A stretch of 64,000 bases of DNA from an uncultured Acidobacteriota bacterium (GCA_963744645.1 CAVUUN010000010.1:122150-186149), one strand, 5' to 3'; shown: positions 3,477-48,942, numbered from the stretch's first letter. Translations and numbers: made by a program. The notes: a model not told the origin generated them from the sequence alone.

Positions 3477-3555
3477 CGATCTCGCGCTCCGAAGGCAGGG
3501 TTCGCCTTCGCGGTCGATGTTCCTACGCGTCGGAAATGGGGTAGAATGACTCCTT

Positions 3556-4266: not shown

Positions 4267-4276
4267 CCTGAGAAAC

Positions 4277-5747
4277 ATGAGCACCAAGCCTGCCGATCCT
4301 GGGCCTCCACTTGGTGACCTCGATCCTGAGACGTTTCGGGAATGGGGCCACCATATCGTCGACTGGATTGCCGAATATCTGGCCAATCCGGAAAAGTATC
4401 CCGTCCTCTCCAAAGTCGAGCCCGGTTCAATCCGAGGGCAGCTTCCAGCGTCTCCTCCCCGTGCAGCCGGAAGATCTTCGGAACGTTTGGCGCGACATCG
4501 AGAACATGATCGTGCCCGGACTGACTCACTGGAATCACCCGGGATTCATGGCCTATTTCGGGATCAGCGGGTCGGCCCCCGGTATTCTTGGCGAGCTCCT
4601 CTCCGCGGCCTTCAACGTCAACGCGATGCTTTGGAAGACCTCACCGGCCGCGACCGAGCTCGAGGAGGTAACGCTCGACTGGCTTCGCCAGATGCTGGGT
4701 CTGCCGGAGCGGTTTTCAGGGAATCATCTACGACACCGCTTCAACCTCGACTCTTCACGCCATCGTCGCCGCACGCGAGGCAATTCCCGGCCTCGGCGCG
4801 CGTGAGGAAGGTCTCTCGGGTAGGCCAGGGAGCGAGATCCTCCGGCTCTACACATCCGAGCAGGCACATTCGTCGGTGGAAAAAGGGGCCATCACGGCCG
4901 GAATCGGCCACAAGAACGTCCGAAAGATCGCGGTGGACGCCGAATTCCGGATGAATTCGGCCGCGCTGGAAAAGGCAATCGTGGAAGACCTCGCCGCCGG
5001 GCTGCGGCCCTTCTGCGTTGTGGCTACTGTCGGAACGACATCGACGACCAGTATCGACCCGGTTCCCGCCGTCGCTCGCATCTGCGAGCGCTACGGCGCC
5101 TGGCTGCATGTGGATGCCTCCTACGGAGGCGCGGCGGCTTTGCTTCCCGAGATGCGATGGGTACTCGAAGGCTGCGCAAGGCGGACTCCATCGTCGTCAA
5201 TCCCCACAAATGGCTCTTCACGCCGGTTGATTTAAGTGCCTTCTACTGCCGCCGGCCGGCCATCCTGAAGCAGGCCTTCAGCCTGGTGCCGGAGTACCTG
5301 AAGACCGGGCAGGACGACGTCGTCAGAAACTACATGGATTACGGCTTCCAGCTGGGCCGGCGTTTTCGCGCTCTCAAGCTGTGGCTCGTTATCCGGACTT
5401 TTGGCAGCGACGGCATGGCGGCCAGGATTCGGGAACATATCAGGCTCGCCCGCCTCGTTGCCGATTGCATCGACCAGGACCAGGACTTCGAACGGATGGC
5501 GCCCACTCCCTTCAGCACCATCTGTTTTCGGGCGGTTCGGCCCGGCTCTCACTCACAGGATCTCGATGCGCTCAACCAGCGACTGCTCGACGAAGTGAAC
5601 AGAAGCGGTGAAGTCTTCCTTTCCCACACCCGTCTCCACGGCCGGCTCGCGCTCAGGATGGCGATCGGGAACATTCGGACCGACGAGGCGTGGGTGCGAC
5701 GGGCTTGGCAACTGGTCAGGAAATCCCTGGACGCTGTCTCCGGTTAA
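4277..5747 (+). CDS. Group II PLP-dependent decarboxylase (aromatic-L-amino-acid / tyrosine decarboxylase family), interrupted by three 1-bp frame breaks
   Basis: The N-terminus MSTKPADPGPPLGDLDPETFREWGHHIVDWIAEYL, the segment NMIVPGLTHWNHPGFMAYF, and SIVVNPHKWLFTPVDLSAFY (PLP-Lys motif) all match the family, but lie in three different frames. Breaks are at about 4445 (C4 run), about 4715 and about 5165. Removing or adding one base at each site gives a continuous canonical sequence. Confidence 0.8.
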
Positions 5748-12419: not shown

Positions 12420-12692
12420 GACCGGTCCTCCTCATAGCGAAATATATGCTTGAGTGTACGCCCCCCCCCGCGAGAAAGCAACAACAAGACCCGGCTGAGT
12501 CTTTCCTTGGTCGATGCTTGTAAAGCCTGTCTGGTGCCCTATTTCCGACATCGCCCCTAAGCAGTATTATCCTATCTTTTGGTTCAGCATATCCGCTCAC
12601 AGTTATATACGTTGGATTTACTTAACAGATCTAACTGCATCGGAACGGCATTAAGGTCCGACCCAATGCGGTTAAGTTACAAGTACGCTGCG

Positions 12693-20291: not shown

Positions 20292-22205
20292 CTACTCGCC
20301 GTCCTTGCCGGGCAGCCCCAGGGTGAAGGCCGCTACGGGCTTGTTTTTGATGTCGCCGCTGAGGGCATCGGCTACCTGGATGTTCCTTCGGGTCAGCGTC
20401 TGGCCGGTCGCTCGGTCCATTTCCACAAGTGCCTTCGCATAATTGGCGCTGGAGTCGACCTCGGCCTGCTGCGCGGCGACGAAGTCCCGTTCGCGCAGGA
20501 TGACCTGGTAGGAGGTCGATACTCCGGCTTCCAGCCGCTCCTGCTCGCCGGTCCAGATTTCGCGGGCCAGCCGGGCAGCCTCATGGGCAGCCTCCAGCTG
20601 CGCCCGTCCTTGAACCAATCCGATCATCGCCTTCCGGACCTCTACCGCGGCCTGGTTCCGCAAACGCTGCAGGCTCAGGCGCAGTTGACTGTCTTCCAGT
20701 TGCGAGCGCAGATTGTCGGCCTGGGCGACCCGGTTGCGAATCGGGATGCTCAGGCTCACGCCCCCGCCATACTCCGGGAACTCGCCGCTCAGCGATTGCC
20801 AGAGCGAGTCGCCGGTTCCCGCGCGCGTTTCGAGTCCGTTCCCCTCGAGCCCGGCGCCTGCGAACAGTCCGAACACGCCTGCGGATGGTTTCAACCCATT
20901 TGCCGTGAAACGGTTTGCGATGGCCTGATTGCGCAGATTTCCCTCGGCCTGCTTGAGATCCGAACGATTCTTGACGGCGCCATCGAGGGCCGCCTGCAGC
21001 TCGGGCAGGTCTGCGTCCTTCGGCTCAGGCATACGGTCCTTCAATACGATCACGGCTGCCTCGATAGCCGGTGTGGACTCCTTCACCAGCAGGCTCTTGA
21101 GCGTCGTCTCCTGCATCTGGAGATTGGTGCGTGCCAGGGTCAGGTCGCGCGTCCGGGCGGCCACTTCGGCTTCCGCGGACGTCACCTCCAGCGGGGGCAT
21201 CGAGCCGATGTCCACGCGAAGCCGATTGTCACCCAGGAGCCGCTCGGCCACCTGAAGGGACTGTTCGGCCACACGGACGTTTTCCTGCAGAGCCGCGAGT
21301 TCCCAGTATGCATTCTCAACCTGAACCACTGTGTCTATCACCTGCAGCCGGAAGACCTCTTCGGATATCTCGGTATTGTTGAGAGCGACGTTAATGAACC
21401 GCTCGTTTGCCAGGCGACCAAAGCCGTTGAGGAGCGGCTGGTGAAAGGCGAAGGAGAAGCGCGAGACGACCGCCGGGTTGAAGCGCAGGCGCTGCTGCGT
21501 GGATGCCTGCCGCTGGCCCGTTACCGCCATCGAGTAACTGGTCCCGGTGTGGAAGAGTTGGGCGTAGTTGCTGCTGAAAGCGGTAGCGTTCGCTGTGACG
21601 ACCGGAACGCCGGCAACCTGAATCGTATTCAAAGGCGAGGTTACGCGGTCAAAGCTGAAGTTCACGTTGACCGAGGGATCGAAATTGCCTGAAGAACCGA
21701 TCGAAATCGCTCCGCCGCCTCCTGTGATGCCGCCCGCGCTTCCCAGTCCGCCACTGCCTCCGGCGGCGCTGACGCCGACGCCGATCGCGCCTGCTGAAAG
21801 ACCGCTCGGGACCGAGGCGCCCTGGACGCCTCGAGCCGCCTGACCGGAGCTTGTTCGCAGTACGTCGGTGTCGGCAATCGCCGGTATGAACCGTTGGACC
21901 GCGATATCCAGATTGTTCTCGAGGGCGAGGGCCAGCGCATCCGAGACAGTGAGCTCGAGCTTGCCATCCCGGATCAGGCTCTCGATTCGCGGAGAATTCT
22001 CGATGACGAGGGGTCGAGTTGGCCGCGCCTGGTAAGGTGCGAAAATATTCGGGAACCAGGAAGCCGGGGCCGACTGCCCGGGGGGTGAGGCACGATCTTC
22101 GCCGGGCGACTGCGCGAGCGCCGCCTGCGGCGCGATCAGGAGCCCGACCATAATGAGTGTAATCACTATCCGAATCTGACGCGATTTCATCAGAAGTTCC
22201 CTCAC
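20292..22205 (-). CDS. Outer membrane efflux protein (TolC/OMF family), copy 2, intact
   Basis: 637 aa. It has a signal peptide, Gly/Ala-rich low-complexity linkers, the two OEP repeats with coiled-coil heptads, and a C-terminal NYAKALVEMDRATGQ motif. Confidence 0.85.
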   Translation of the reverse strand: MRELLMKSRQIRIVITLIMVGLLIAPQAALAQSPGEDRASPPGQSAPASWFPNIFAPYQARPTRPLVIENSPRIESLIRDGKLELTVSDALALALENNLDIAVQRFIPAIADTDVLRTSSGQAARGVQGASVPSGLSAGAIGVGVSAAGGSGGLGSAGGITGGGGAISIGSSGNFDPSVNVNFSFDRVTSPLNTIQVAGVPVVTANATAFSSNYAQLFHTGTSYSMAVTGQRQASTQQRLRFNPAVVSRFSFAFHQPLLNGFGRLANERFINVALNNTEISEEVFRLQVIDTVVQVENAYWELAALQENVRVAEQSLQVAERLLGDNRLRVDIGSMPPLEVTSAEAEVAARTRDLTLARTNLQMQETTLKSLLVKESTPAIEAAVIVLKDRMPEPKDADLPELQAALDGAVKNRSDLKQAEGNLRNQAIANRFTANGLKPSAGVFGLFAGAGLEGNGLETRAGTGDSLWQSLSGEFPEYGGGVSLSIPIRNRVAQADNLRSQLEDSQLRLSLQRLRNQAAVEVRKAMIGLVQGRAQLEAAHEAARLAREIWTGEQERLEAGVSTSYQVILRERDFVAAQQAEVDSSANYAKALVEMDRATGQTLTRRNIQVADALSGDIKNKPVAAFTLGLPGKDGE

Positions 22206-22396
22206 TGTCCTGTCTGTCGCCTCCCTGATGTCCGGGTGGGCAAAGCTGAGGCGGCGACTAGAATACTACGAGAACCAGGGTCACTTGTTTCTGTCAGTCC
22301 CCGAGGAGCGACCGGCCGGTCCGCCTCGGTTCCCGGCGGACATTGTAGCCGTGTTCGCGGTTTCGGCGCGAGTTTTTGGGAGTATTTGGGTGACCG

Positions 22397-24046
22397 TTAT
22401 TTCCCTTCGTGAACAATCTCGATTGCGTTCAGACACGCATAGTTCACGACTGGCTGGAAAGTGAGGATCAGCTTGCCTTGCGAGTTTGCGCGGAGGTTGC
22501 GGAAAGTCTTCAGAACCGGTCGGTTCGCGCCCCCCGCCTGGGCGAAGATATCGAAGTCCTTCAGGAGCAGAAGGCCGTTGCACTGGATGTCGAAGACGCG
22601 CAGCCCCGCTCCTCCCAAGCCGACGTTTTCGGGACCGAAGTAGGTCTCGGCAAAATGGAAGGTGGCAGTGTACCGACCTGGGGAAACGGGAACCACGTAG
22701 GTGAAGTTTCCGAACCGCTCAGTCTCGTACAATTCGGGATCGATGGTTCCTATGATTCGGGTTCCGTGGGCCACCCGGCGTCCACCCGAGAAGAATTGCT
22801 CCGGGCTCCAAACCTCCTGGTTCTTGGTAAAGAGGGGAATCGTCCGGGTTGTCATACGCAGGGGTCTCATCCGGCCAGGAAGTCCCGGGAAGATCTCGAT
22901 TGCGTTGAGGAGAGCTCTCCCCTTGGTGCCGTGAAGACGAATCGACAAGAACCCGTCAGCGGCCGGGGAGACGTCGCTGAAAACCTTGATATCCGCAGTC
23001 CTGGGCCCTCCGGAATCAGCCACGATGTCGAATTCGTCGAGAGCCAGCCGTTCGTTCAGGAACATATCGAACAGCCGCGTGGTTTCGCCCGCTCCCTCGA
23101 ACCCGTCGGTCGGCTGCTGGGGCTCTGCGAAGTAGAGGTGAGCCTCGTAGATCCCTGGCTTCAACGGAATCCGGTACTCGAATTCGCCTTCGCGTCCGCG
23201 CCGCCAGATGGTCTGGTCTTCGGCCCGCACAATGACCGCATCGGGGGCCGCTCTGAAGGGAGTACCGCCGATGAAGAACCGGTCCCCGGTCCAAATTCGC
23301 CCGATCTGGTCGGCATACTTGGGCGCGTCGTTTCCGCACAGGATCCTGATTTCCGAGAGAGGGCTCATTCCTTCGTAGGTCGTCGCGGCCGGGACCGTTG
23401 ACTTGACCGCTGGAGCCTGCGCGTCGGTCGGAGGTTTCATGAAAATGAGGAAAAGCATACCGATGAGGAGGGCTGCGGGGATGCCGACCCAGGCAATCCG
23501 GAAAACGCCGGGCCTCGGGACGACAAGCTCGACGGGCCGCGGACGCACGTCGACGGCGGAGTGGTCCTCCCGGGTGGGCTGTGGCGGGCGGGCCGGGAGA
23601 ACGGCCGGCAGGGGAACCGGCAAGTGGCTTACATCAGGCGCTTTCAGAGCACGCGTCTGGAACTGGAAGACCGGGACGTATTGGCCGAGCGGCAGAAGAA
23701 TATGGACCGCGTGGTCGCGACCCTCGGTACGGTAGTACTTTTTGAGCCGCTCGCGCAGTCTGTTTGCGTCGACACGGACGATCGGATCCTGCTTCGGTTC
23801 AAACTCGGGCGGACGTCCGAATGCCTCGACCGCGATCGTGTACTCCTTGATCTGGTCAGCTTCTCCGGAGAAGTACTTCTCGCAGACGTAGCGAAGAAAA
23901 GAAACCAGGCTAGGCGCTCGGCAAAAGTAGCGCGAGGCGACGACCGATTCCAGTTCGGCCCGCATTTCCTCCACGTTGGAAATCACTTGCTGATCGCTCA
24001 CCCAATGCTTCTTTCTAAATCCCAGCCCGGGTGCCTGATTTAACAC
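22397..24046 (-). CDS. ToxR/CadC-like membrane-anchored regulator: N-terminal OmpR-type winged-helix domain, one TM helix, two periplasmic malectin-like carbohydrate-binding domains
   Basis: 549 aa. The N-terminal region LVSFLRYVCEKYFSGEADQIKEYTIAVEAFGR...DPIVRVDANRLRERLKKYY resembles trans_reg_C. The TM helix is IAWVGIPAALLIGMLFLIF. Two repeated domains end in LNAIEI(F/V), which is malectin-like. Confidence 0.55.
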   Translation of the reverse strand: MLNQAPGLGFRKKHWVSDQQVISNVEEMRAELESVVASRYFCRAPSLVSFLRYVCEKYFSGEADQIKEYTIAVEAFGRPPEFEPKQDPIVRVDANRLRERLKKYYRTEGRDHAVHILLPLGQYVPVFQFQTRALKAPDVSHLPVPLPAVLPARPPQPTREDHSAVDVRPRPVELVVPRPGVFRIAWVGIPAALLIGMLFLIFMKPPTDAQAPAVKSTVPAATTYEGMSPLSEIRILCGNDAPKYADQIGRIWTGDRFFIGGTPFRAAPDAVIVRAEDQTIWRRGREGEFEYRIPLKPGIYEAHLYFAEPQQPTDGFEGAGETTRLFDMFLNERLALDEFDIVADSGGPRTADIKVFSDVSPAADGFLSIRLHGTKGRALLNAIEIFPGLPGRMRPLRMTTRTIPLFTKNQEVWSPEQFFSGGRRVAHGTRIIGTIDPELYETERFGNFTYVVPVSPGRYTATFHFAETYFGPENVGLGGAGLRVFDIQCNGLLLLKDFDIFAQAGGANRPVLKTFRNLRANSQGKLILTFQPVVNYACLNAIEIVHEGK

Positions 24047-24436
24047 GCTCCCCGGGAACAGTCAACAGGTAAAGCCGTAAGTGCGTGTGAAAGCGCTACT
24101 AAACCGGCAACGGTAACGCATCATGGGTCAAACATTAACCCCGTAGTTCTTGACCCTTGTACTCGCGTGAGGGTCCGGCGGTCAAGAGAAGCAGTTTGGT
24201 GGCGGGCGGATTGGTTCTCGCTGGTGCGTAGGCCGTCTGCAGACTTCGGACGGACAGAATCCGATGCGCCCCAGCGGCGCACGGACGAACCGTCGCAAGT
24301 GATCCGGATTGCCCCCATTTTGCGCTTCTTTTCGCGTGCACTGCAGCGCGGAACGACCTCGTTTCGGCTCGGATCATGACAACCGAGGAGGCTTCAGAGA
24401 GCGGTCAGAAGTGTGAGCGTCGTCACGGAATCCCTC

Positions 24437-24464
24437 TTGACAAGCGGTCGCGCCTGAGTATTAT
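24437..24464 (+). promoter_or_regulatory. Sigma70-like promoter (TTGACA-16nt-TATTAT) upstream of the secreted-protein operon
   Basis: ttgaca at 24437-24442 and tattat at 24459-24464 lie in a locally lower-GC stretch about 240 nt upstream of the 24703 start. This is a pattern match only. Confidence 0.3.
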
Positions 24465-24702
24465 TGCCACGCTGGTAGCAGGTTTGCTTTTTGTTCCTGG
24501 ATGGGGGAAAACGAGAAGCGCCGGTCCTCAGGCGGGAGGCCCGAAGAGGCATCCCCTGCGTAAAGTTCTCGCCACACCATTCAATACAGATAAATCTGGT
24601 GGGAGTCCGCCTGCGCGCTGGGTGACGCCCGCCTTGGCAAGGACGACATCCGGATCTTTCTTTGCTCCGGCGGGTCGAACAAGTGAAGAATTCGGGGGGG
24701 GC

Positions 24703-25248
24703 ATGATGCAAGACTTTCTGTCGTTGGTGCAAGCGAGTGATACCACGATCGGTATGATCTCGGGTCTGTTACTGCTGCTCGGCTGCTGGGTTTCCGCGAG
24801 GACCTTCTTTCCCGGCGATGTGCAAAAGGATGAGAGGGGCAACGAGATACGGGACAAAGAAGGCAAGCCTATCCCGTTTCCGCAAGGAGCGGGTCTTTTC
24901 TACCATCTCTGTGCGACCACTGTGAATGCTTTAGGACTCGCCCTGGGTATTCTCGCAATATTCGGGCTTCATCTCCCGTATTCAGGCGTCTGCTTGGTCT
25001 TCGCAAGCGTGATCGGCTACGTCTACTTCGAGTGGCGAGCTCGCAAGTATGATGACAGGGCGGCTATGAGGGGTTGGAGAGGGGAGGATTCATCCTCGCC
25101 CGGCTTGAACTCCCAAGACGTCAAGCAGCTTGTTACAGCCCTCGAGGGTGTGGTCCTGGAGGGGTATAAGCTCGACGCTACATTGAAACCTGTCCGAAGA
25201 AGTTCAGAGGCAAGGGCCAAGAACGCCGACCTGGTCGAGGTTGAATAG
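24703..25248 (+). CDS. Hypothetical integral membrane protein (first gene of the secreted-protein operon)
   Basis: The preferred start is MMQDFLSLVQ at 24703, inside ORF 24376..25248. There are about 4 TM helices (ISGLLLLLGCWVSA, LGLALGILAIFGL, VCLVFASVIGYVYF). A G8 tract lies directly upstream of the ATG. Confidence 0.45.
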   Translation: MMQDFLSLVQASDTTIGMISGLLLLLGCWVSARTFFPGDVQKDERGNEIRDKEGKPIPFPQGAGLFYHLCATTVNALGLALGILAIFGLHLPYSGVCLVFASVIGYVYFEWRARKYDDRAAMRGWRGEDSSSPGLNSQDVKQLVTALEGVVLEGYKLDATLKPVRRSSEARAKNADLVEVE

Positions 25249-25297
25249 GATCGGAGCGCCTCTGCCCGTCTTTTCAAGCCATGCAAGGGAGGGTTTC

Positions 25298-26671
25298 ATG
25301 TCTGCACCTCGCCGCGGTAATTTGTCGAATGTGTTGTTTCAGGTCCTCAAGTTCCTGCTCGTGACGGTCGCGATTTACCAGATCGGCCTTCGCGAGCAGT
25401 TGGGACTCAATCTCGACGATGACTTCTCGCTCGTGAACGCTACACCGGTTGTGCAGCTGACCGAGACCGGGCGCTTCACGGTTAGTTTCTACGTATTGCA
25501 CTTCTTTCGGGATTACAAGTTCTTCACGGTCGAAGCGTCTGCCCAACCGGATGGCAAAAGCGCCGCTCAGCCGCTCACTCCTTTCGGAGGAGTTCCGGCG
25601 CGCTTTGAGCAACCCGGTCCAGGTACTGGGACGCCTCATTACTTCTCACTGGAGTATGTTCTTCCGCCCGGCATGACGAACAGGTGTCTTGTCCGCTACG
25701 CGGTAACCTTCGACGGCAACCCCAAAACCAAACATGAGGTCGCGCGTATCCAGGTAAAACACATTCCCCCAGTGGACCCCAAAGGTCTTGTGGTGCCAAC
25801 ACCTCTCTCAGTAGTTCGGGGTCAGCGTTGTGAGATGCCTGAGAACCTGCTCGGTATGAATCTCTGGCCCGCTTCTGAAAGTGCCGAAGTCAAAGTGGTA
25901 TCAGAAGCGGAGAGAGTCTGGATCGAAAGCAGGAATCAGTCAAATAAAGTGCTCCCCGTGGGTACTTCCAACGTGGCCTTTCGGACCAGGGCGACAGTCG
26001 CCGGAGTAGATACGAACAAGAAGACAATAACCGTCGAGACAGTTGGGCGCCCCGCGGCGACCGTCGACATGGCCCATACTGCTCTTTATCGCTTCCCTCC
26101 ATCGGGCGCTGCACCCCGCCGGATCTCGCTGGATGATCTAAGCAACCTGAAGAACCCTGGAATTGTCTTTACAGGTGCGGTTAAGAACGGCCTCATTGCC
26201 CCTCTGCAAGAAGTCAGGGTTGGTGATCCTCAGGACCCTCGAATGCACGTGACTTTGACTCTCGTGGTGGGTCCCAATCGTCCGCCGGAGCCGGTTTATA
26301 CGGAGCCGGGCAGCCGGACCTTCAATGCCAGGTGCGCTGATTTCTTCGGAAACCCGACCCTGAACCTTGCTAACCGGTACCTGAACCTCAATAGGATTAT
26401 TGTGGACCCGGATGGGAAGTCGCCGTCCACCGGTGCCGCGAACATCAGGGTGGCGTTCGCCATTACGGCGGATGCCGGGCGAGACGACAGAGGACTGCCT
26501 TTCAAAGTAATCAGGGCCTGGGATGACTCCGGCGACTACTATCTGGAAGCGCCGGGCGATATTTACACGATAATGGCCAAGCATCCGATGGCCGTTCCCC
26601 TGTCGGGTATTCGGGTTTTCGCAAGTGACGAGATGGGCAGTCACGAGATTCCGCTGCAGATTTGGCGTTGA
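25298..26671 (+). CDS. Hypothetical protein with an N-terminal TM anchor and a large extracytoplasmic domain
   Basis: The start at MSAPRRGNLSNVLFQVLKFLLVTVAIYQ is preceded by AGGGAGG. About 457 aa. No recognisable domain. It overlaps the neighbouring genes on both sides by 8-10 nt. Confidence 0.55.
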   Translation: MSAPRRGNLSNVLFQVLKFLLVTVAIYQIGLREQLGLNLDDDFSLVNATPVVQLTETGRFTVSFYVLHFFRDYKFFTVEASAQPDGKSAAQPLTPFGGVPARFEQPGPGTGTPHYFSLEYVLPPGMTNRCLVRYAVTFDGNPKTKHEVARIQVKHIPPVDPKGLVVPTPLSVVRGQRCEMPENLLGMNLWPASESAEVKVVSEAERVWIESRNQSNKVLPVGTSNVAFRTRATVAGVDTNKKTITVETVGRPAATVDMAHTALYRFPPSGAAPRRISLDDLSNLKNPGIVFTGAVKNGLIAPLQEVRVGDPQDPRMHVTLTLVVGPNRPPEPVYTEPGSRTFNARCADFFGNPTLNLANRYLNLNRIIVDPDGKSPSTGAANIRVAFAITADAGRDDRGLPFKVIRAWDDSGDYYLEAPGDIYTIMAKHPMAVPLSGIRVFASDEMGSHEIPLQIWR

Positions 26672-26682
26672 GGAGACAGACG

Positions 26683-27762
26683 ATGAAAGAGACTCTTGTT
26701 CTACGGGCCTACCCGGTAAAAGCGGCATTACTCAGTCTGTTCTGCTGGGTCCTGGCTGTTAACTTAGGGGCGCAGGCCCCGACGGTCAGATCTTCCCTCG
26801 ATTGTCGTCAGAACAACAGGGAGAACAGAGAGCTGGCTCCGCCCGCGGGCATGGTCAATTGCGATGTCTCGCTCCTCGTCGGTTGTGATGGAAAGGCTGT
26901 TCCGACATGGCAGAAGTTCCACGAGTTAATCGTGGAGACCTGCAATGCGGCCGACGGCGGTGGCACGAAGAACACTGTTCCTGCAACGGGCGCCTCTCAG
27001 ACCGCGGGTTCTTGCGATCCGGAGAGCTTGCCGGCTGTCAATTGGATTTTTCGCGTCAAGCAGGGGGTCATTGGGCGGCATCTCATCGCAGATAGCGAGG
27101 TTGCCCTGACCGGGATTTCCTGGATCTGGAATGGCACGAGGTATGTGGCGGTCGGTTGCCGCTGTCCCCGAGACGGCACGAAGACGATCGCCATGGCCCT
27201 CTCCAGCTCGAAACAAGAGCTCAAAGGATTTATCGAGGATCTCCAGGTATTCGAGTTGGTGTACGTCCCCCGGGTTTCGTCGGACCAAACCGGGGAGCAC
27301 TTCGACGTCTACACGGTCGCTCTGGTTCCTGCCTGGGTTTTCAAGGAGAACCTCTTCAACACTGCTACATCCCAGCCGACCGGCTACGCCTTACCGGCCA
27401 AGAAGTCGACCCTCGCCGGCGAGCGCGACCGGCTTGAGGGCCTTTTCATGAAGCGCGGAACCAGCGAGAGCCTGCGAGAGTATTTGGAACGCCAGCCGCG
27501 AGACGAGAACGGGCAGTACTCGAATCTTCAGGTCAGCTTCTTCCGACACCAGGACACGCTGGACCGGAAGCTAGGGACTGCGGGCGCGACGTTCTTCGAC
27601 GACTGCTCCAATTTTTGGAGGACCGTGAAAGAACGGATCGAGTCGCAGCGCACGATTCTGTTGCCGGAAAAGCTCCGGGCCACCACGCGTGAAAATACCC
27701 CGAGTGCGACGGCACCGAGGGGCGGGACGGGCCGTAACACGAGAACGAGGCGCGACAGGTAA
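26683..27762 (+). CDS. Secreted hypothetical protein (signal peptide, several Cys)
   Basis: The start MKETLVLRAYPVKAALLSLFCWVLAVNLGAQA is preceded by GAGGAG. About 360 aa, with a basic C-terminal tail. Confidence 0.55.
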   Translation: MKETLVLRAYPVKAALLSLFCWVLAVNLGAQAPTVRSSLDCRQNNRENRELAPPAGMVNCDVSLLVGCDGKAVPTWQKFHELIVETCNAADGGGTKNTVPATGASQTAGSCDPESLPAVNWIFRVKQGVIGRHLIADSEVALTGISWIWNGTRYVAVGCRCPRDGTKTIAMALSSSKQELKGFIEDLQVFELVYVPRVSSDQTGEHFDVYTVALVPAWVFKENLFNTATSQPTGYALPAKKSTLAGERDRLEGLFMKRGTSESLREYLERQPRDENGQYSNLQVSFFRHQDTLDRKLGTAGATFFDDCSNFWRTVKERIESQRTILLPEKLRATTRENTPSATAPRGGTGRNTRTRRDR

Positions 27763-27779
27763 AGCTGGAATCCACCACC

Positions 27780-29225
27780 ATGAAGACATACACATTCCAG
27801 GGGAGGCCGTTGGCCCTCATCGCCGTCTCAATTCTCCTAACGCCGGTTGTTCTTCCTGCGCAGGCAACCCAGGCGCCGCTGAGCCAGCCGGACCAAATGG
27901 CGATTATTCGCGAAGTGACGGCCGCCCTGCGAGAGCTCAAGTGCACGTGCAACCCGGCCGAGTTGGAGTGCTCGAAAGTCGAAATCACAAAGCGCAACTG
28001 CGTGTGTGAAGCGGGAGACGAGATCGCCCTTCTCGAATCGCTAGCCGACCCGCAAAGGGTCAAGGATCGAGAGGCGGCACAAGAGGTGGCTTTCGCGGCC
28101 TCACGTTGCCTGCGAAAGGCAGGGTGGGATCAGGCCAAGCTCGAGAGATTCCGCCAGCTGGCGGAAAACGCCTCGTGTCTGGACAGCCGTCTCTCCCGTG
28201 CGGGATGGCAGCTCGAGCAGGTGCTCAAACAGGATCTGCCCAATACACTTCCAGCCGGCTACGATGCGACGATCGATTCCGCGGTCGACACCGTCCGCGA
28301 GACCGTCCGGACATTCCGCATGATGAAGGAGCGGCCGACTGAGATCGCGGTCATCGATCGCGCCCAGGCCCTGTGCATTAGTGGAGGCAGTCTCCAGGAG
28401 GGGCGTGAGAAACTGGCGCAATTCCTCCCGAAGTTCACCGATCTCATGGTGTCCATTTCCGCCCGCTTCCCGCAATTGGCCCCTCACCTGGGCAGCGTGC
28501 TGGACGCGATCAGCGTTGATTCCATTGAGATCTTCGGCGGTCACGACTACCAGGCGCAGCTCAAGGAGGATCGCACCCTCCTGATCGGCTGGGATAACTC
28601 GAACCTGGCTGGCACCTCTCACTTCTATCAGCTGAGACAGGAGCTTGCGAAAAAGGAGGAACTCTCCTCACTGATCCCCCGCGCGGATGCGCCGAGCTAC
28701 GAGGCCGTCCGGCCGCAGTTCGAGGAACAGACCCAGTTGGTTCGAAAGCTCTTAGCCGACGGGGCGACGCACCTGGTTTCCAAGGCAAACGCGTGGCGAG
28801 CATATGAAATTTATGCCGAGCAGCTCTTTGGATTTGCCGATTCCCTCATGCTCGCGCCCGAGCGTCGGTGGGCGCGATTCGTGTTGATGGAGGCGGCTGC
28901 CGATGCGATGCGGCAGGGCCTGGAAACCTCCCTCGGCTCGGACCTGACCGAACCCCTGGACAAGAAACGACAGGACCTCGGAACACGGGTCCTGAATTAT
29001 GCGAGGGAACTTGCCGAGTCCGGGTACGACTCCGAGGTCGTCCGGCTCGAGGAGCACTTCGCCGACAGCCCTGCCTTCACCGAAGAAGCACGGTGCACAA
29101 TTCACGCGCACCTGGCTCAGGCGAATTGCAGGCTCGGCCGTCACAGCGAAGCCATGGCGCACCTCCGCCTGTGGCGCATGTGCGGAGGCGTCGGCGCCTT
29201 ATCCTCGGATTGTCAGTTGGAGTAA
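27780..29225 (+). CDS. Secreted, predominantly alpha-helical hypothetical protein
   Basis: 481 aa. Signal peptide ALIAVSILLTPVVLPAQA. Cys pairs (CTCNPAELEC, NCVCEAG). Composition is rich in Ala/Leu/Glu/Arg. Confidence 0.55.
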   Translation: MKTYTFQGRPLALIAVSILLTPVVLPAQATQAPLSQPDQMAIIREVTAALRELKCTCNPAELECSKVEITKRNCVCEAGDEIALLESLADPQRVKDREAAQEVAFAASRCLRKAGWDQAKLERFRQLAENASCLDSRLSRAGWQLEQVLKQDLPNTLPAGYDATIDSAVDTVRETVRTFRMMKERPTEIAVIDRAQALCISGGSLQEGREKLAQFLPKFTDLMVSISARFPQLAPHLGSVLDAISVDSIEIFGGHDYQAQLKEDRTLLIGWDNSNLAGTSHFYQLRQELAKKEELSSLIPRADAPSYEAVRPQFEEQTQLVRKLLADGATHLVSKANAWRAYEIYAEQLFGFADSLMLAPERRWARFVLMEAAADAMRQGLETSLGSDLTEPLDKKRQDLGTRVLNYARELAESGYDSEVVRLEEHFADSPAFTEEARCTIHAHLAQANCRLGRHSEAMAHLRLWRMCGGVGALSSDCQLE

Positions 29226-29237
29226 TCAACCGTTCTT

Positions 29238-32200
29238 TTGGCTTTTTATTGGAACTCACTCTCGATGATGCTCTCCCGAAGCCCAAAGGAGTCTCCAGTG
29301 CGAATTCGGCTGCTCCCTCTATTATTTGCGTGCTCACTCGTTGCCGTCGTGCTCGCGCAAGCACTCGTGGCCGCCCCTATTGCCGACCACCTGGAACGGG
29401 CAAAAGTGCTATTGCAGAGGCTGAAGCTTCCCCCCAGTCCGCAGCCGGGTCTTGAAAGCTACGACTTTGTTCAGGACAACTACGAGCTGGTTCGGGAAAT
29501 GCAAAAGGAATGCAATGCTGCCGAAGATCATTACGCGACAGAAGGAATCCCGGATCGGCAGATGACGGATGCACTCGCCAGGCTGCATTTGATCATGGCG
29601 TGTGCGGGTATCCTCATCAATGATCACGAAGTGTTCGAGCTGAATGTCCAAGCTGGCTGCCGGGTGTTACGCGCCGCCTACGGCTACGACCAGGGCCGCT
29701 GTCTGGAAGCGCTGGCGAACCTCGGCAACGACTACACGATCGGAGCGCAGCCGCTGAGCGTGTTCTACCAGAGGCTGAAGGGCGGGTATGAGGCGGTTCG
29801 TGAGAACAGCAAAGAAGTCGAGATTCGCTTCGAACGGTCGTCTAACCTCGTCCCTCTAAGTGAGCTGGGCGTGAGAGCCCTGCCAGGCGCCTCGCCTTAC
29901 GCGCAAGCATTCGCCCAATCGCTGGACAGCCGGCTGCGGGAGCCGGTCGAAAAGAACTGGTTCATCACCTATTACCTCGACCAGGCGGCTCAACGGCAAA
30001 TGGCGATCCAGCCGACTGACTACTTCGCCGTCAACCCGGGAAACGTCGAAAAGACCCAGTGGGTTGCGCAGGTGGGAACGGAATTCCGGAATCTCAACCC
30101 GGTGACCCTGAAGCTCCGGATTCCCGAGGGGAAGTACTACTTCTATAAACGCGGCGAAGCCGTCACAGATGCGAAGGCCAATCTGGAAGTCGGCGGAGAA
30201 GGCGCCAGGATCCCGAAAACGGCTATCGTGAAGGTGGACGAATCGGGCACCCGGGTGTCGACCGAGTTGCTCTATGCCTCCGACGCGACTCCCCTCACCT
30301 TCCGGCCCGAGTTCTCCCTCCTCGATTTTCGCCTCGGCAAAGACAACGAGGCGGGGGGCTCGAAGGCGCGGTTGGCGGGCGAATGTTCCAGAGATTCGGC
30401 CAACACCTGGCCCTCCAAACGCAGGGCGAGTTCGAATTCCGCAAGCATCGCGATCTCATGGACCTGGATCAGGTCCTGGCCAATATCCCTTCACAGTACC
30501 TGCCGCGCGAGCAGCGTGACCCCTTCGATTTCAGCGCCAGGGAATTCCAGCTGGACATCGGCCCGGTTGTCCGCGTAAAGAACCTTCAGTTCGCCGCCCT
30601 GCAGAGCCTGCGCTACGTGAAGCGCAATACCTGGGACGATGGAGGTTACATCGGTCAGTTCTTCTTCAACGCGGGGTACCTCTTCAAATACGGCCAGGTC
30701 GGCTTGTTTGCCACCACGTCGAACATCGATGAGCCGGTCGTGAATGCCGTGCAGTTCGACGACGTTCTGTTCGAAGAAACCTACCTGAAGGTGGCCGATC
30801 AGTTTGGCGTCAACTTTCAGTTGGGTCCCCCCAACAGCCGGAACATCGGATACTTCGAAGGTTCCGCTGGTTACATCAAAATGGCCACCGTCGAGTCGGC
30901 CTTTGGAGGCAACCTTCGCTACATCCAGCCGCTGCCGTGGGAGAGGTTCCGTGACCGCCTGGCGGTCACCGCCGAGGTCGGCTACAACGAGGGCTTCATC
31001 AAGAGCACCGAGAACAACCTCCGAGTCGGAATTGGGCTCAGGTTCGGGAAATGGACCCGTCCCTCCGACTTCACGCAGGCCAATCAGGGAGCGGTCCCGG
31101 TTATCGTGCCGCGGATTCGCTACGAGACCCTCACCCGCATCGTGCGTCACGGTAACCGACGGCCGATCGCGGATGCCGGCCCGGATCAGATCGGCGTCGA
31201 TTGGCGCAATGGACAGATCGTCCTCGACGGTAGCGGGTCGAACGACCCGGACGGCGATTCCCTGACCTATGCCTGGAGGGCCGTGAAGCCTCTGGTGGCA
31301 CTGCAGGATCCGAATACGGCCCATCCCCGCTTTACCCCAACTAATGGCGAAGACTACACCTTCGAACTGATTGTCAAAGACAGCTTCGGGCTGGAAAGCG
31401 AGCCGGACACCGTCCGCGTCACCACGCTGAGGATTGTTCAGCCCAAGGTTCTCGACTTCCGGGTCGACAACGCGCTTTTCCGGACCCCAGGATGCCAGGG
31501 AGCCGTTCCACCCACCCTTTTCTGGAAGGTCCAGGATGCGGCGCGCATCACGATCAGCAATACCTCCATCGACAAGACAGTCACTGCGGCAGTCGACGAA
31601 GGCCAGGTTCAGGTCAACCCGACCGAGACGATCACTTATACTCTGACCGCGTTCAACCTCGTCAACGAGGCGGTGAGCGCGACGGTCACCGTGACCGTGC
31701 GGCCGTGCCTGCCGGTGATCAACAGTTTTACAGCCACTCCTCCTGAAATTCGGAGCGGCGGCACTTCGGTGCTGACCTGGCAGGTGGAGAGTGCCGAGAC
31801 GCTGAGGTTGACCAATGATGGGACAAGCCGCGATCTGACGGGGACGTCGATTACGGTCAATCCCACGAAGACAACCGTGTACACCCTGACCGCTTACAAC
31901 AGGGCGGGAGAGATCGTATCAGCGGAAGTGACCGTGACGGTTAAGGATGCCCTGCCTGCTATCAGGAGTTTTACAGCGACTCCCGCCGAAATCTCTGCCG
32001 GAGAGAACTCCGTTCTTGCCTGGGAAGTGGAAAACGCCTCCAGAATCACCCTGACCAACGGCGGGGATGTTCAGGATCTGACTGGTTCGCAGAGCCGTAC
32101 CGTCGCTCCTGCTCAAACCACGGTTTACACGCTCAATGTCTTCAACAATGCCGGGGAATCGGCCACAGCGCAGGTGACCGTCACGGTGAAAGACAGACTC

Positions 32201-33511
32201 CCGAGGATCCTCAGCTTCACGGCCTCACCTCCCGAAATTCGGAAAGGTGAAAGCGCGGTGCTTGCCTGGCAGCTGGAGAACGCCTACAGGATGACGCTCA
32301 CAAATGGCGGCAACCAAGTGCAGTCGCCGGTCACCCCTTACCTCGTCACTCCTGACCAGACGACCGTCTACACCCTGACCGTTTTCAACAGGACGGGCGA
32401 AACGACGACCGCGCAGGTCACGGTGACGGTGAAACCGAAAATGCTGGTGATTCGCAGTTTTGCCGCCAATCCGCCGGAGATCCAGCCAACTCAATCCTCG
32501 GTTCTATCCTGGCAGATTGACCAGGCCGATGCAGATTCCCGCATCAGCCTGACGAACGGGCCGTCCAACCTGGGGCCGACCGGCACATACGCGGTGACCC
32601 CGTCCGCCACAACCATTTACACCCTGAATGCCTGCAATACGGCCGGGGAATGCGCGACTGCCTCCGTGACCGTGGTTGTTCGCGAGTTACCCGTCATCAG
32701 CCTCTTTATGGCGATACCGCCGGAGATCGATCTCGGACAGACGTCTACGTTGAGCTGGAAGGTGTCGAGCGCAAGCCAGGTCTCCATCACGAACGTTCCG
32801 GTTCCTATCGACCCCAGGCAATTGGAGGGAACTAAGGTTGTAAGTCCTCTTGAAACCACGATTTATACGATCAATGCCTGCAACGTCAGGGGCGATTGCG
32901 TCAGCTCCTCGTTGACGGTGACAGTCAGGCAGGTTTTGCCCCCGATCGAAATCACGTACTTCAGGGCCAATCCGGAGGAGATCGAGGAGGGCGGACAGTC
33001 AACCTTGAGCTGGGAAGTACACAACGCCTCGCGCGTGACAATCCCGGAGGCTAATTTCGACAACAGTCAGGTTACCAACCCGTACATAAATAGCCTAACC
33101 GTCGCGCCTCGGGTGGCCACGACTTACACCCTGATCGCGTGCAATGCGGCCGACGTCTGTCGCAGCAAATCGGTCACCGTGACAGTCAGCCCCCCGGCTG
33201 TCCCGAGGATTCTGTACTTCACGGCGAACCCGCCGCTGATCGACCAGGCCGAGCATCGTTACTCCGATCTCTCGTGGGAGATTGTAGGCGCGACTCAGTT
33301 GACGATAACGAATCTGTCTGATGACGGTATTCCGTTCCAATTCAAGGATTCGCGCCGGGTCTCGCCCGCGCAGACGACGACCTACACGATCGCTGCCTGC
33401 AATGCCGGAGGGCGGTGTGCGTCGGCGGCCGTCACGTTGGTTGTTCAGGAATCCGCGCCTGTCAGTCGTTCGAGCCCGAGCTTGAGCCAAGAATCGGGCC
33501 GTTGGCCCTAA
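29238..33511 (+). CDS. Giant secreted surface/adhesin-like protein (~1,420 aa): signal peptide, helical and beta-rich N-terminal domains, one PKD domain, and 12 tandem ~85-aa Ig-like repeats. Probably one gene broken at a G6 homopolymer (30352-30357).
   Basis: ORF 29238..30578 is meaningful only to about 30350. ORF 30383..33511 follows in another frame. Adding one G to gaggcggggggctcg gives a continuous ...RLGKDNEAGGLEGAVGGRMFQRFGQ.... The PKD signature is IADAGPDQIGVDWRNGQIVLDGSGSNDPDGDSLTYAW. The repeat unit is roughly P.I.SFTA.P.EI..G..S.L.W.V..A....LTN.G......T.....P..TTVYTLTA.N.AGE..A.VTVTV. Confidence 0.7.
31710..33460. repeat. 12 tandem ~255-bp coding repeats (Ig-like domain array) inside the giant protein gene
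   Basis: A diverged ~85-aa module recurs with conserved TTVYTL(T/N)A.N and VTVTV(K/R) blocks. The DNA-level similarity is moderate. Confidence 0.75.
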
Positions 33512-33612: not shown

Positions 33613-33704
33613 GGAATCGGGGACACAATACTTAATTCCCAAAGCGTTCACCTGCTCTCCGCAGGTTCACGGGAATTGAGTTTATGTCCCCGATTTCCAA
33701 TCCC
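33613..33704. repeat. Dispersed palindromic element, copy A (~90 bp). Arms are cggggacacaatacttaattccc / gggaattgagtttatgtccccg around a loop holding a second palindrome cctgctctccgcagg.
   Basis: About 90% identical to copy B at 36199-36290. The arms are shared with copy C (48800-48942) and half-copy D (62983-63020). It lies immediately upstream of the hybrid kinase gene. Confidence 0.7.
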
Positions 33705-33706: not shown

Positions 33707-36139
33707 GTGGTCGAGTCTGGATCGATCCCGACCCCTGACAACTCCGGCCTTGTCAGTGGTGCAGCGCTGGGGGATAATCGCGCGGTTAGCCAGTTGGGGG
33801 GGCAAGTGGAAGGGGGGGCGCAGCAACTGTCGGTTTTGTCTTCCGAGAAAGCAACATATGAGTCTCGGGAGCCCTCTGCTCACCCGTTCCGGTGGGTGAT
33901 GGTGCTCGCCATTGCCTCCCTGGCGGTGTGCGCTCTCTGCGTGATGGTCTTCATTCCCTCCTCGTATTCGCTCCCTCTCGTCGAAATCCAGAACGTGGCA
34001 ACGGGACCATGGCAGGGTGTAAGTCCTATCTTCAGCTATTACCCCAACGCCAAGATCGAGATCGTTGAGAATGGGCCTGGCCAAGAGGACCAGCCGCACA
34101 AGTTTTTGCGCTGCCGGGTGGCCAAGGCGGACGGGTGGACAGGGTTTGGGATTCTGACCACCGCAAGCGCGGCCGGGGACGCGACCCTTTATCTCCGATG
34201 GCGATGCAGCGGTACCGCTCCCCACATCCAGATCGATTTGCGCGAGCGCCCGCGGAAGCCCGGCGAGCCGTCAGGGGAAGTCTTCTCGGCCGCCGTACCC
34301 TTCGTCTCGAATAAATGGGCGACGACGCCTCTGCCGCTCCGCGGCCTTTCCAGGAATCAGTTCTACCAGCCGGCCGGGATTCACGGCAATGGAGTGCTTG
34401 ATGCCGACCGGGTCGAGCTCATAGCCTTCACCTTGCCGCCCGGCTCGGAAGTGACGATCGACATCGCGGACCTGAGATTCGAGTGGCATAGCTCCAAGTG
34501 GCAGGTGGTCGGAGGCATTCTCGCGGTCGGCTTCCTGGCGATCCTCGTGATGGAGGCGGCACAGCTCGCAATCAGGAGGCGTAAAGCGGAGCGGACGCTG
34601 AGAACCTCGGAGGCCAACTACCTCACGATTTTCAACGCGGTGCGGGAAGGGATATGGGTGCTCGACGCGGAGACCGGGAAGATACAGGACGTGAATCGAA
34701 CCGCTTGTGAGATGCTGGGCCTGGGGCGGGACTCGATGCTCGGTCGGCCCTTCACCGATCTGGCGTTCGATCTCAGCCTCCAGGATTGCCGGCACGCCTT
34801 CGGCAAAAGTGTCGCGACCACCTATCACGAATTCGAGTGCAGGCTTCAGCGACAGAACGGCGAGACGGTCTGGGGAGATCTGCGCACCACTCGAACCGAA
34901 ATCGGTGAGCAGCAGCTGCTTCTGGTCGTGATGCGCGAGATCAGTGACAAGAAAGAGGCTGAACAGGAGCGGCTCCGGTTGGAGCAGCGATTGATGCAGT
35001 CCCAGAAGATGGAAGCACTGGGCAAGCTCGCCGGCGGCATTGCCCACGACTTCAACAATATTCTGACCGGCATCAGCCTGGCTGCCGACATGGCTTTACT
35101 GAAAGGCGGTCCCGATGCGCCGATGGTCCCCGAGATCCGGCAGGTTCGTGAACTGGCCGACCGGGCGACCGGACTGACAAAGCAGATGCTGACCTTCAGT
35201 CGCCGGCAACCGCTCCATCCGGTGCCGCTCCACCTAAACGCCCTAATCCAGGGCTCCTTGTCGATGCTCGTCCGGCTGATCGGCGAAGATATTCGCCTTA
35301 CGTTTCACGCCGACACGGACCGGGATCTCATCCGGGCCGATCAAAGTCAGATCGAGCGGGTGCTGATGAACCTGGCGATCAATTCCCGGGACGCCATGCC
35401 GAAGGGCGGGAATATCACAATCCGAACCTGCACCCAGATTCTGAAAGGCAGGCGCTCTGACCTGGACCTGTCGCCTGGCGAATATGTCGTGCTGGAAGTC
35501 GCGGATACGGGGCAGGGAATAGACGAGGCAATCCGGGAGCGAATCTTCGAACCTTTCTTCACTACCAAGGAATTGGGGAGGGGCACAGGCCTCGGCCTGT
35601 CGACGGTCTACGGAATCGTGACCAAACACAAGGCGGCGATCACGGTCGAGAGCTCACCGGGTTCCGGCTCCAGGTTTCGCCTCTTCTTCCCCTACCTTGT
35701 GGTCGGCGAGGCAAAGGTCCGGGTGCGCGAGGAGGCGAAGCCGTCGGTTCAGGGCGGCAACGAGTTGGTCCTCATTCTGGAGGACGATCCGGACGTTCGC
35801 CAGCTTGTCGAAGCCACCCTGACCAGTTTCGGCTACCAAACGGTATCGGCCGCGTCCGCGATTGAGGCTGAATTGCTTTACCGCGACCGGAGGGATGAGG
35901 TGGCGCTCCTGCTCGCGGATGTTGTCATGCCAGGCGAGAGTGGACCTCAGTTTTACCACCGCATGGTCCGGGAGAACCCGGACCTGAAGGTCCTGTTCAT
36001 GTCCGGGTATGCGGATACGAAGTCCATTTGTACTGATGTCCGTCGCCAGGGATTGCCTCTGATCCAGAAGCCGTTTCAGCTGGCCGATCTGGGCCGGTTG
36101 GTCCGCGAGATTCTCGAAGCGTCGACAGTGCGGGCCTAG
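33707..36139 (+). CDS. Hybrid sensor histidine kinase / response regulator (periplasmic sensor domain, TM, PAS, HisKA, HATPase_c, REC)
   Basis: 810 aa. The PAS domain is [15 protein letters not shown]. The H-box is [17 protein letters not shown]. The N/G boxes are [16 protein letters not shown] and GTGLGLS. The C-terminal receiver is LILEDDPDV...LLADVVMPG...KPF. The true start may be an internal GTG/ATG near 33900. Confidence 0.85.
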
Positions 36140-36198: not shown

Positions 36199-36290
36199 GG
36201 GAAATCGGGGACACAATACCTAATTCCCAAAGCGTTTACCTGCTGTCGCAGGTTCACGGGGATTAGGTTTATGTCGCCGATTTCTTCCCC
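36199..36290. repeat. Dispersed palindromic element, copy B
   Basis: gggaaatcggggacacaatacctaattcccaaagcgtttacctgctgtcgcaggttcacggggattaggtttatgtcgccgatttcttcccc lies between the kinase stop and the protease gene start. Confidence 0.7.
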
Positions 36291-48745: not shown

Positions 48746-48942
48746 AGGTTCGGGGGGAGCGTTCGGGGAGTTTGGGGGAGTTTCGGGGAGTTCGGGGAGT
48801 TTCGGGGACACAAAACTTAATTCCTTTGCTTACGGGGAGCCCGCGGTAAGCGGGATGGGAATTAAGTATTATGTCCCCGAAACTGCCACGGGGAGGCCGC
48901 GGTAACGGGATGGGAATTAAGTATTATGTCCCCGAAACTGCC
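48746..48942. repeat. Dispersed palindromic element, copy C (a full copy plus a partial second copy), preceded by about 6 degenerate tandem copies of its first 10 nt (gagtttcgggga)
   Basis: gtttcggggacacaaaacttaattcc tttgcttacggggagcccgcggtaagcgggat gggaattaagtattatgtccccgaaactgcc is then followed by ...ccgcggtaacgggatgggaattaagtattatgtccccgaaactgcc. It lies directly upstream of the ggt start. Confidence 0.7.

Follow-up and report, generated by a model that had tools for sequence, protein, structure and literature searches.

Intimin, invasin, and YeeJ, members of the inverse autotransporters (type Ve), share one order of parts: a periplasmic wall-binding domain, a barrel, and an immunoglobulin (Ig)-like passenger (PMC4943183; PMC5595812). 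Acidobacteria go unmentioned in the text of a 2016 survey of inverse autotransporters (PMC4943183), and a full-text literature search found no paper linking the two. Here, we focus on a five-gene operon in a 64,000-nucleotide stretch of DNA from an uncultured Acidobacteriota bacterium (GCA_963744645.1, CAVUUN010000010.1:122150-186149), called the window below. Its last gene, gene 5, is interrupted by a one-base frame break; when the frame is restored, it encodes a signal peptide, a putative periplasmic domain, a predicted barrel, a short linker, and an Ig-like passenger, in the same order as in type Ve proteins. In soil, Acidobacteria rank with the most abundant bacteria, and very little is known of their attachment and envelope building.

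Other described systems also bear on this locus. FapF exports the functional amyloid of Pseudomonas; the protein has a periplasmic coiled coil before its barrel, and its gene stands last in the fapA-F operon. In the LapD-LapG-LapA system of Pseudomonas fluorescens, an inner-membrane receptor for cyclic di-GMP (c-di-GMP) is linked via the periplasm to an adhesin with Ig-like repeats that is held at the outer membrane. OmpA, with a barrel of eight strands, enters the comparison through the relatives of gene 5.

We read the locus as a five-component envelope-spanning adhesin module, restricted to Acidobacteriota, that resembles an inverse autotransporter, and give this reading a probability of about one half. 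The features of the operon are as follows, with positions counted from the first nucleotide of the window.

24703..25248, + strand: gene 1, a 181-amino-acid inner-membrane protein with three transmembrane segments predicted from hydropathy and a positively charged C-terminal tail
25298..26671, + strand: gene 2, a 457-amino-acid predicted bitopic inner-membrane protein with a transmembrane helix at residues 8-35, followed by three Ig/FN3-like beta-sandwich domains in tandem
26683..27762, + strand: gene 3, 359 amino acids with a signal peptide, the least conserved member of the operon
27780..29225, + strand: gene 4, 481 amino acids with a signal peptide and a Cys-containing mature part
29298..30358, + strand, frame 0: 5' part of gene 5, with the signal peptide, an N-terminal domain (N-domain) of ~335 amino acids, and the first barrel strand; the frame continues to a stop at 30578
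30353..30358, + strand: G6 tract at which the frame of gene 5 breaks; one added G gives a 1,404-amino-acid protein
30359..31156, + strand, frame 2: rest of the gene 5 barrel and conserved linker PVPVIVPRIRYETLTRIVRHGN, from an AlphaFold2 (AF2) model
31157..31450, + strand: PKD domain (K319L-like) of gene 5 (Pfam PF22352; E 1.2e-13; 51 bits, cutoff 27)
31451..33511, + strand: eight Ig-like repeats of gene 5 (82-87 amino acids each), a short C-terminal tail, and the stop, from a repeat hidden Markov model (HMM)

The five open reading frames (ORFs) run in the same direction and are closely packed, with intergenic gaps of 49, 11, 17, and 12-72 bp, the last depending on whether gene 5 starts at 29238 or 29298. 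A preliminary description of this DNA had listed the same first four genes together with the last one, and all five were recovered on the + strand. Its statement that no gap exceeds 20 bp does not hold for the first gap, unless gene 2 begins at an alternative TTG at 25241. It had also counted six genes in its title; the genes are five, and a sixth ORF arises because gene 5 is split.

The last gene had been taken as a single 1,420-amino-acid ORF at 29238..33511. This span cannot be one ORF because its 4,274 nt are not divisible by 3. In frame 0 a stop is reached at 30578, and what is left of the gene, up to 33511, lies in frame 2, where the ORF is listed from an ATG at 30383 and is open upstream past 30200. 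The public gene calls of the source contig (446 kb) split the gene likewise, into pieces of 426 (P0121) and 964 amino acids. With one extra G in the G6 tract the gene reads through 1,404 codons without interruption, and the fused junction, ...LDFRLGKDNEAGG|LEGAVGGRMFQRFGQHLALQTQG..., aligns residue for residue with homologues that are single ORFs (window ...DNEAGG|LEGAVGGRMFQRFG, orthologue NNETRD LEGSFGGRMFQRFG). Residue numbers of gene 5 below refer to this fused protein.

The same five-gene order, with similar protein sizes and with gene 5 as a single ORF, is found at five distant loci. Their sources and the lengths of the products of genes 1 to 5 are listed here.

L003, JGI metagenome: 172/442/342/459/1074 amino acids
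L005 (= L011), metagenome-assembled genome (MAG) named 'Acidobacteria bacterium': 226/415/329/408/1452 amino acids
L010, metagenome scan: 211/485/442/501/1161 amino acids
L012, metagenome scan: 210/439/462/542/1303 amino acids
L013, metagenome scan: 264/436/420/467/1141 amino acids

The five genes are thus a rare operon with conserved gene order, present in six known loci including the window. Gene 5 is its best conserved member (39-53% identity over long BLAST alignments). Genes 2 and 4 show about 20-30% identity and are placed in the same families by hhalign (98% and 99%). An exhaustive HMMER search with genes 2, 3, and 4 against 1.84 billion representative proteins returned 36 proteins in all, about 22 for gene 4, about 10 for gene 2, and about 4 for gene 3, and the N-terminal part of fused gene 5 has very few relatives. 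The exact gene 4 protein also occurs on the Logan contigs L001 and L002. All the relatives found come from MAGs or metagenomes.

The barrel of gene 5, a feature that the preliminary description did not contain, was seen in an AF2 model of residues 1-722 built from 27 aligned sequences (mean predicted local distance difference test score, pLDDT, 80). The model begins with the signal peptide, a helical bundle, and a mixed, less confident region that extends to about residue 330. A barrel follows at residues 333-585, with long strands between 338 and 583 and pLDDT mostly >90. DSSP divides it into 13 long strand segments, so that the predicted strand count is 12 or 14. After the barrel come a short helix, a conserved strand (RYETLTRIVR), and then the PKD domain. 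The top Foldseek match of the barrel in the PDB is the beta-domain of Yersinia invasin (4e1t; E 3e-5, template modelling score, TM-score, 0.54). OmpG ranks second, and FapF (TM-score 0.45-0.51), NalP, EspP, and intimin (4e1s/5g26, 0.52-0.53) are also among the matches, the scores to invasin and intimin together spanning 0.52-0.54 at a root-mean-square deviation of ~7 Å. Since the barrel lies next to invasin in this comparison and stands N-terminal to a passenger of PKD and Ig-like domains, gene 5 is likened to a self-exporting adhesin of the intimin/invasin type.

In the passenger, the PKD domain also finds PKD structures by Foldseek (TM-score 0.7-0.8), and the repeat HMM places eight Ig-like units at residues 719-1386; Pfam gives sub-threshold Ig matches only. 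Twelve Ig repeats, forming a 1.75-kb DNA repeat array, had been proposed earlier. Both points have to be revised: there are eight units and one PKD domain, and the DNA copies, spaced by 243-261 nt, are 60-80% identical, with nothing reported by Tandem Repeats Finder over the region. The number of repeats varies among orthologues, being eight in the window and L005, seven in L012, five in L010, and four in L013 and L003.

Despite the shared order of parts, gene 5 differs from the inverse autotransporters in several respects. It has no sequence similarity to the IAT_beta domain (PF11924) or to any PDB chain, the barrel profile finding nothing in the PDB at E<=10. In the place of the LysM carried by intimin and YeeJ, which Pfam does not find in the window gene 5, it has the ~335-amino-acid N-domain. 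LysM is itself confined to some members of type Ve. The passenger consists of PKD and a new Ig-like repeat rather than Big_1/Big_2 and lectin domains, and the gene belongs to a conserved operon in which it has four partners. Because PF11924 gives no match, the passenger and periplasmic domains differ, and four partner genes are present, gene 5 is not filed as a member of type Ve. By analogy it may be viewed as a type Ve-like variant in an otherwise undescribed operon.

The structural matches to FapF invite a different reading, in which the chief role of the barrel is to secrete the products of genes 3, 4, and perhaps 2, as in FapF or ZirT-ZirS, and the accessory proteins are surface cargo. FapF chains are among the best matches, and, as in the fap operon, the barrel gene stands last after genes for products with signal peptides or membrane anchors. 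Relatives of gene 5 have a periplasmic coiled coil before the barrel, as FapF does. Genes 1-3 diverge fast and are exchanged between strains, which is typical of exposed proteins. However, right after the barrel gene 5 has a large C-terminal passenger of its own, whereas FapF has none, and the same barrel family also occurs without such partner genes. Moreover, the transmembrane helix of gene 2 is conserved, and it is identical between strains while the rest of the protein diverges, which fits a permanent inner-membrane anchor and not cargo. No Fap components (FapB/FapC amyloid repeats or the FapD/C39-like peptidase) were matched in genes 1-4 with Pfam or NCBIfam. On balance, a pore that serves mainly the partner proteins seems improbable.

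A profile search for the wider barrel family collected about 80 proteins, all of them unnamed or called 'hypothetical', 'PKD domain-containing', or 'OmpA family', and every source that gives an organism names Acidobacteria. Most of these relatives are built from OmpA_C followed by a coiled coil, the barrel, PKD, and then four Ig-like repeats, and full-length members occur in MAGs of Bryobacterales, Terriglobia, and Acidobacteriaceae. For example, P0004, L006, L007, and L009 carry OmpA_C (PF00691) and a coiled coil before the same barrel; a peptidoglycan-binding domain in this position has its parallel in the LysM of intimin and YeeJ. This sister subfamily, one member of which NCBI names 'OmpA family protein', thus joins OmpA_C to a barrel, as OmpA does, but in the reverse order, with OmpA_C N-terminal; in addition, the barrel exceeds the eight strands of OmpA and is followed by PKD and Ig-like repeats. 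In the window gene 5, Pfam finds no OmpA_C. The OmpA-type barrel genes have no neighbours resembling genes 1-4 (hmmsearch), and the N-domain is confined to the operon-linked subfamily, so the accessory genes co-occur specifically with the new N-domain. This domain, a helical bundle with mixed beta structure in the model, is new and predicted to be periplasmic. Genes of the sister subfamily lie at L006 9251-12322, L007 9287-12247, L009 5-2920, and L004 629-3679, and some have a second C-terminal PKD-like domain.

The OmpA-type relatives also bring in a purely structural role. The barrel could serve as an anchor and the N-domain and PKD/Ig chain could both be periplasmic, acting together with genes 1-4 as a staple or spacer of the envelope in the manner of OmpA, Lpp, or Tol-Pal. 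With an even number of strands, the N- and C-terminus would alike lie in the periplasm if no segment passed through the pore; the relatives combine a peptidoglycan-binding OmpA-like domain with a coiled coil, and gene 2 is itself predicted to be a periplasmic chain of Ig domains. The nearest structural neighbours of the barrel, though, are mostly barrels that export polypeptides, and the stretch that follows the barrel is conserved more strongly than any other in the family, as expected for an element that fills the lumen or caps it. The spread of four to eight repeats among orthologues is hard to fit to a periplasm of fixed width, and a chain of nine beta-sandwich domains is, by our own estimate, long for a periplasm. 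Such a staple is therefore about as improbable as the pore.

The products of genes 1-4 had been described as having no recognizable domain, and indeed neither they nor the N-terminal part of gene 5 match Pfam, NCBIfam, or PADLOC. Profiles of genes 2, 3, and 4 gave no meaningful match to PDB sequences. The one modelled product, gene 2 (AF2, pLDDT 77), consists of the transmembrane helix followed by three beta-sandwich domains, whose Foldseek neighbours in the PDB are FN3, Ig, and MG-domain arrays (ScpA, SbsB, alpha-2-macroglobulin, contactin, and antibodies). Membership of the unknowns in known enzyme families had been named as an outcome that would speak against the earlier reading; in the model, gene 2 is a chain of Ig/FN3-like domains and not an enzyme fold. 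Its N-terminal helix is conserved, with invariant polar residues, and an 'IVDPDG' motif is conserved as well. The transmembrane hairpin of gene 1 has a conserved N-x-x-G-x-x-x-G motif. The mature part of gene 4 is probably helical, judging from its sequence, and contains the conserved motifs NLAGTSHFY and C.IHAHLAQA. No protease family was recognized by sequence in genes 2-4, and the gene 2 model has no protease fold. The idea that genes 2, 3, and 4 and the N-domain of gene 5 are paralogues of one another was considered and rejected (hhalign probabilities <=0.2%).

A possible input to the module from the cytoplasm comes from gene 1, in a feature that had also escaped the preliminary description. 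In L005, L010, L012, and L013 the gene 1 product has an N-terminal PilZ domain in place of the first transmembrane segment, followed by two transmembrane segments. The matches to PilZ (PF07238, gathering score 22.5) are graded as follows.

L013 gene 1: E 4e-6, 27.5 bits, above the gathering score
L012 gene 1: E 2e-4, 21.9 bits, below the gathering score, covering profile positions 3-67 of 102
L005 gene 1: E 0.034, 14.9 bits, below the gathering score
L010 gene 1: E 0.052, 14.3 bits, below the gathering score

Three of the four matches cover nearly the whole profile, and in all four proteins the RxxxR motif keeps both arginines and (D/N)xSxxG keeps its glycine. In L010, a GGDEF gene lies two genes upstream of gene 1 on the same strand. 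There, a GGDEF diguanylate cyclase gene and an unknown 647-amino-acid gene (1048-4648) precede the PilZ-bearing gene 1; a counterpart of the unknown gene, of 675 amino acids and 28% identity, is present at L012 2690-4717. The GGDEF gene and the unknown gene may be extra operon members in the L010/L012 branch.

Based on these features, we propose the following mechanism. The gene 5 product would cross the inner membrane by means of its signal peptide, and its barrel, of about 12 strands, would insert in the outer membrane. The conserved linker would pass back through the barrel or cap it, and the PKD and eight Ig-like domains would be shown outside the cell as a stalk in the type Ve manner. The N-domain would take the place of the wall-binding OmpA domain of the free-standing relatives and dock onto the periplasmic products of genes 3 and 4 and onto the three-Ig stalk of gene 2, the latter being anchored in the inner membrane beside the small gene 1 membrane protein. 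In the PilZ lineages (four of the six operons), cytoplasmic c-di-GMP might be coupled to display, retention, or tension of the adhesin, an 'inside-out' control. In the present genome, gene 1 lacks PilZ, and gene 5 would have been interrupted by loss of one G from a G7 tract. The sequences and models show the conserved gene order, the place of the frame break, the barrel fold with its closest structural matches, the Ig-like chain of gene 2, PilZ in orthologues, how rare the families are, and an exchange of alleles between strains; surface exposure of the repeats, self-export, contacts among the five proteins, and c-di-GMP control are what we infer from these parts. An assignment to the cell envelope or surface had been made earlier; the predicted topology, the modelled barrel, and the Ig-like domains all agree with it.

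With Lap, this scheme would share only the concept, and no component is homologous. In place of a degenerate GGDEF-EAL protein, the scheme would have as receptor a protein with two transmembrane segments that bears a PilZ domain, and the adhesin would be barrel-anchored and self-exported, whereas the Lap adhesin leaves via a type I system.

Several observations weigh against an adhesin module of this kind. The families of genes 1 and 3 are joined mainly by position (hhalign 32% and 26%), in the case of gene 3 together with a weak C-terminal 'FW..V..RI' motif, and physical contact among the five proteins is an inference. Classical inverse autotransporters need no dedicated partner genes, and the passenger domains of gene 5 are not Big_1/Big_2. 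The monomeric porin OmpG, which has 14 strands and is no exporter, also reaches a TM-score of ~0.5. Pfam, including PF11924, gave no barrel match at E<=10 for six members of the barrel family or for the ORFs of the window. The strand count is read from secondary structure predicted by AF2, and a linker that runs through the lumen with the passenger outside is a proposal consistent with the strong conservation of the linker. As for PilZ, three of the four matches stay under the threshold of Pfam, and when the four PilZ-like N-termini were combined into a profile and searched against the PDB, no PilZ chain was recovered. Gene 1 of the window and of L003 has no PilZ match, nor is there a remnant upstream in either; the proposed c-di-GMP coupling is therefore not universal.

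A comparison of the window with the sister strain L014 (ENA contig, 708 kb) shows that part of the operon has been exchanged, a further feature that is new with respect to the preliminary description. In the flanks and beyond about 27.0 kb, the two sequences share 98-99.4% identity. Between them, window 24230-27000 is divergent from L014 4990-7730; this tract comprises the leader, genes 1 and 2, and gene 3 as far as codon ~100. Within it, window 24315-25519 is 74% identical to L014, 25519-26219 is unaligned, and 26296-26800 is patchy. The change along the operon is seen in amino acid identity and in synonymous divergence (dS) and its ratio to nonsynonymous divergence (dN/dS), as follows.

Gene 1: 71% amino acid identity, dS 1.27, dN/dS 0.16
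Gene 2: 46-62% amino acid identity, dS 1.49 and dN/dS 0.33 (N-terminal part)
Gene 3, first ~100 residues: 71-73% amino acid identity, dS 0.42, dN/dS 0.47
Gene 3, remainder: 99% amino acid identity, dS 0.022, dN/dS 0.24
Gene 4: 99% amino acid identity, dS 0.006, dN/dS 0.64
Gene 5, N-domain: 99.7% amino acid identity, dS 0.004, dN/dS 0.32

Judged from the two sequences, the difference from the leader to the start of gene 3 is allele replacement by recombination and not local fast evolution. The transmembrane hairpin of gene 1 and the transmembrane helix of gene 2 are near-identical in both alleles, while the soluble parts differ.

The second difference between the strains is at the frame break in gene 5. 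In L014 the site reads G7, so that the frame is restored, whereas the Logan assembly L001 (run ERR10755943), 99.97% identical over 6.8 kb with 2 mismatches and no gaps, has the same G6 as the window, although L001 may not be independent of the source assembly. The L014 assembly is error-prone: single-base insertions outside homopolymers break other genes, at window positions 26994, 30403, 32334, and 40083. It is unlikely, however, that a random error in L014 would land exactly in the 6-nt tract of gene 5. Programmed -1 frameshifting at G_GGG_GGC was considered and rejected. It is unlikely because the RNA downstream of G6 folds no better than shuffled sequence (z = 0.09), none of the five distant orthologues has a poly-G tract at the site, and the sister strain is in frame.

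The break would then be slipped-strand ON/OFF variation, a young null allele, or an assembly error. Since gene 1 lacks PilZ and gene 5 is out of frame by one lost G, the adhesin is taken to be off or decaying in this genome, either in a phase-OFF state or as a young pseudogene. Another account, which is compatible with the adhesin module, is that the locus merely decays here, with gene 5 a pseudogene, PilZ lost from gene 1, and no current function, or that G6 is an assembly error. Besides the broken frame, the downstream piece of gene 5 has no signal peptide of its own, PilZ is absent, and the tests for recoding were negative, as described above. Yet but for one base gene 5 is open over its full length, and the values for genes 4 and 5 given above, with 99% identity and low dN between strains, count against decay. 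L014 has the in-frame G7, L003 lacks PilZ and nevertheless has an intact gene 5, and the shared G6 of L001 speaks, within the limit already given, against the assembly-error version. We consider decay or error a possibility worth keeping in mind, though not the likelier course.

The swapped allele and the change between G6 and G7 point to variation of this surface structure at the level of populations. One may go further and see the locus as an undescribed trans-envelope system, with a new barrel family that is either convergent on type Ve or an extremely diverged branch of it, an N-domain wired via the two periplasmic proteins and the Ig stalk to a PilZ protein of the inner membrane, so that c-di-GMP would act on the adhesin post-translationally from the cytoplasm, a partner cassette (genes 1-2 and the start of gene 3) whose highly divergent alleles are exchanged among near-identical strains, and an adhesin switched by poly-G. 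We hold this larger claim only tentatively. If the adhesin module is real, the design of inverse autotransporters reaches a new phylum via a barrel family that current sequence models do not see, and surveys based on PF11924 would undercount type Ve-like systems. A self-exported adhesin with inner-membrane and periplasmic partners and a PilZ input would, in addition, be a new route for c-di-GMP to the cell surface.

Upstream of the operon, the following signals were located.

24437..24464, + strand: sigma-70-like promoter match TTGACA-16-TATTAT (11/12), ~240 nt 5' of gene 1, a candidate only
24694..24701, + strand: G8 homopolymer, one base 5' of the gene 1 ATG

Both had been pointed out before. 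The G8 tract is there as described; its counterpart in L014 is G7, in surrounding DNA that is 74% identical. The promoter match exists as well, but the match alone is not significant because such sites are no more frequent than expected by chance (2 observed in 12.6 kb, 2.8 expected from shuffled sequence), and it falls within the strain-variable tract. An Rfam scan of the whole window and a permissive c-di-GMP riboswitch scan of the gene 1 leader gave no match, and a search of the six ORFs against the anti-phage defence models of PADLOC-DB (E<=0.1) was also negative. Further upstream, a gene for an outer-membrane efflux protein (OEP) and a gene for a protein with two malectin domains lie divergently on the minus strand (window 20292-24046) and are kept in L014.

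Downstream of gene 5 come a hybrid kinase and a putative protease, which had been joined to the operon as its dedicated sensor and protease. The domains named at the time are present in part: the kinase has the order PAS-HisKA-HATPase-REC, and the second protein has a strong NHL match, but its M6 match (68.7 bits) falls short of the cutoff of 110.8. If all seven genes formed one module, the kinase would control the operon and the protease would process the giant product of gene 5. All of them are adjacent and on the same strand, both in the window and in L014. This adjacency, however, is kept only in that sister strain, which is ~99% identical; a tblastn search found no homologue of either gene within 10 kb of the operon in L003, L005, L010, L012, or L013, where the neighbours are unrelated, and copies of a dispersed repeat separate both genes from the operon and from each other. 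Kinase and protease are accordingly rejected as conserved partners, and the seven-gene module is very improbable. At the related loci, the downstream genes encode a family-2 glycosyltransferase, a methyltransferase, or, on the opposite strand, a coiled-coil protein and YkuD. At L003 13402-14448 and L012 13812-14861, it is the glycosyltransferase gene that immediately follows the adhesin gene.

The dispersed repeat is a palindromic element with the core CGGGGACACAAWACTTAATTCC, for which six matches were found where chance would give 0.01. Rfam has no model that matches it. Its copies in intergenic gaps are at the following places.

Window 33618-33700: dispersed palindromic element
Window 36206-36227: dispersed palindromic element
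Window 48803-48934: dispersed palindromic element
Window 62984-63005: dispersed palindromic element

The element had been said to bracket each of the two downstream genes. It does so for the kinase, with copies on both sides (33618 and 36206); no copy follows the protease gene.

The locus is rich in poly-G. Apart from G8 before gene 1 and G6 in gene 5, two G7 runs, at 33796-33802 and 33812-33818 and thus 9 nt apart, lie inside the 5' end of the hybrid kinase ORF. The longest G/C run in the window is a C9 homopolymer at 12461-12469. Finally, an inverted repeat at window 58819-58950 has 64-nt arms that are 92% complementary and separated by a 4-nt spacer.

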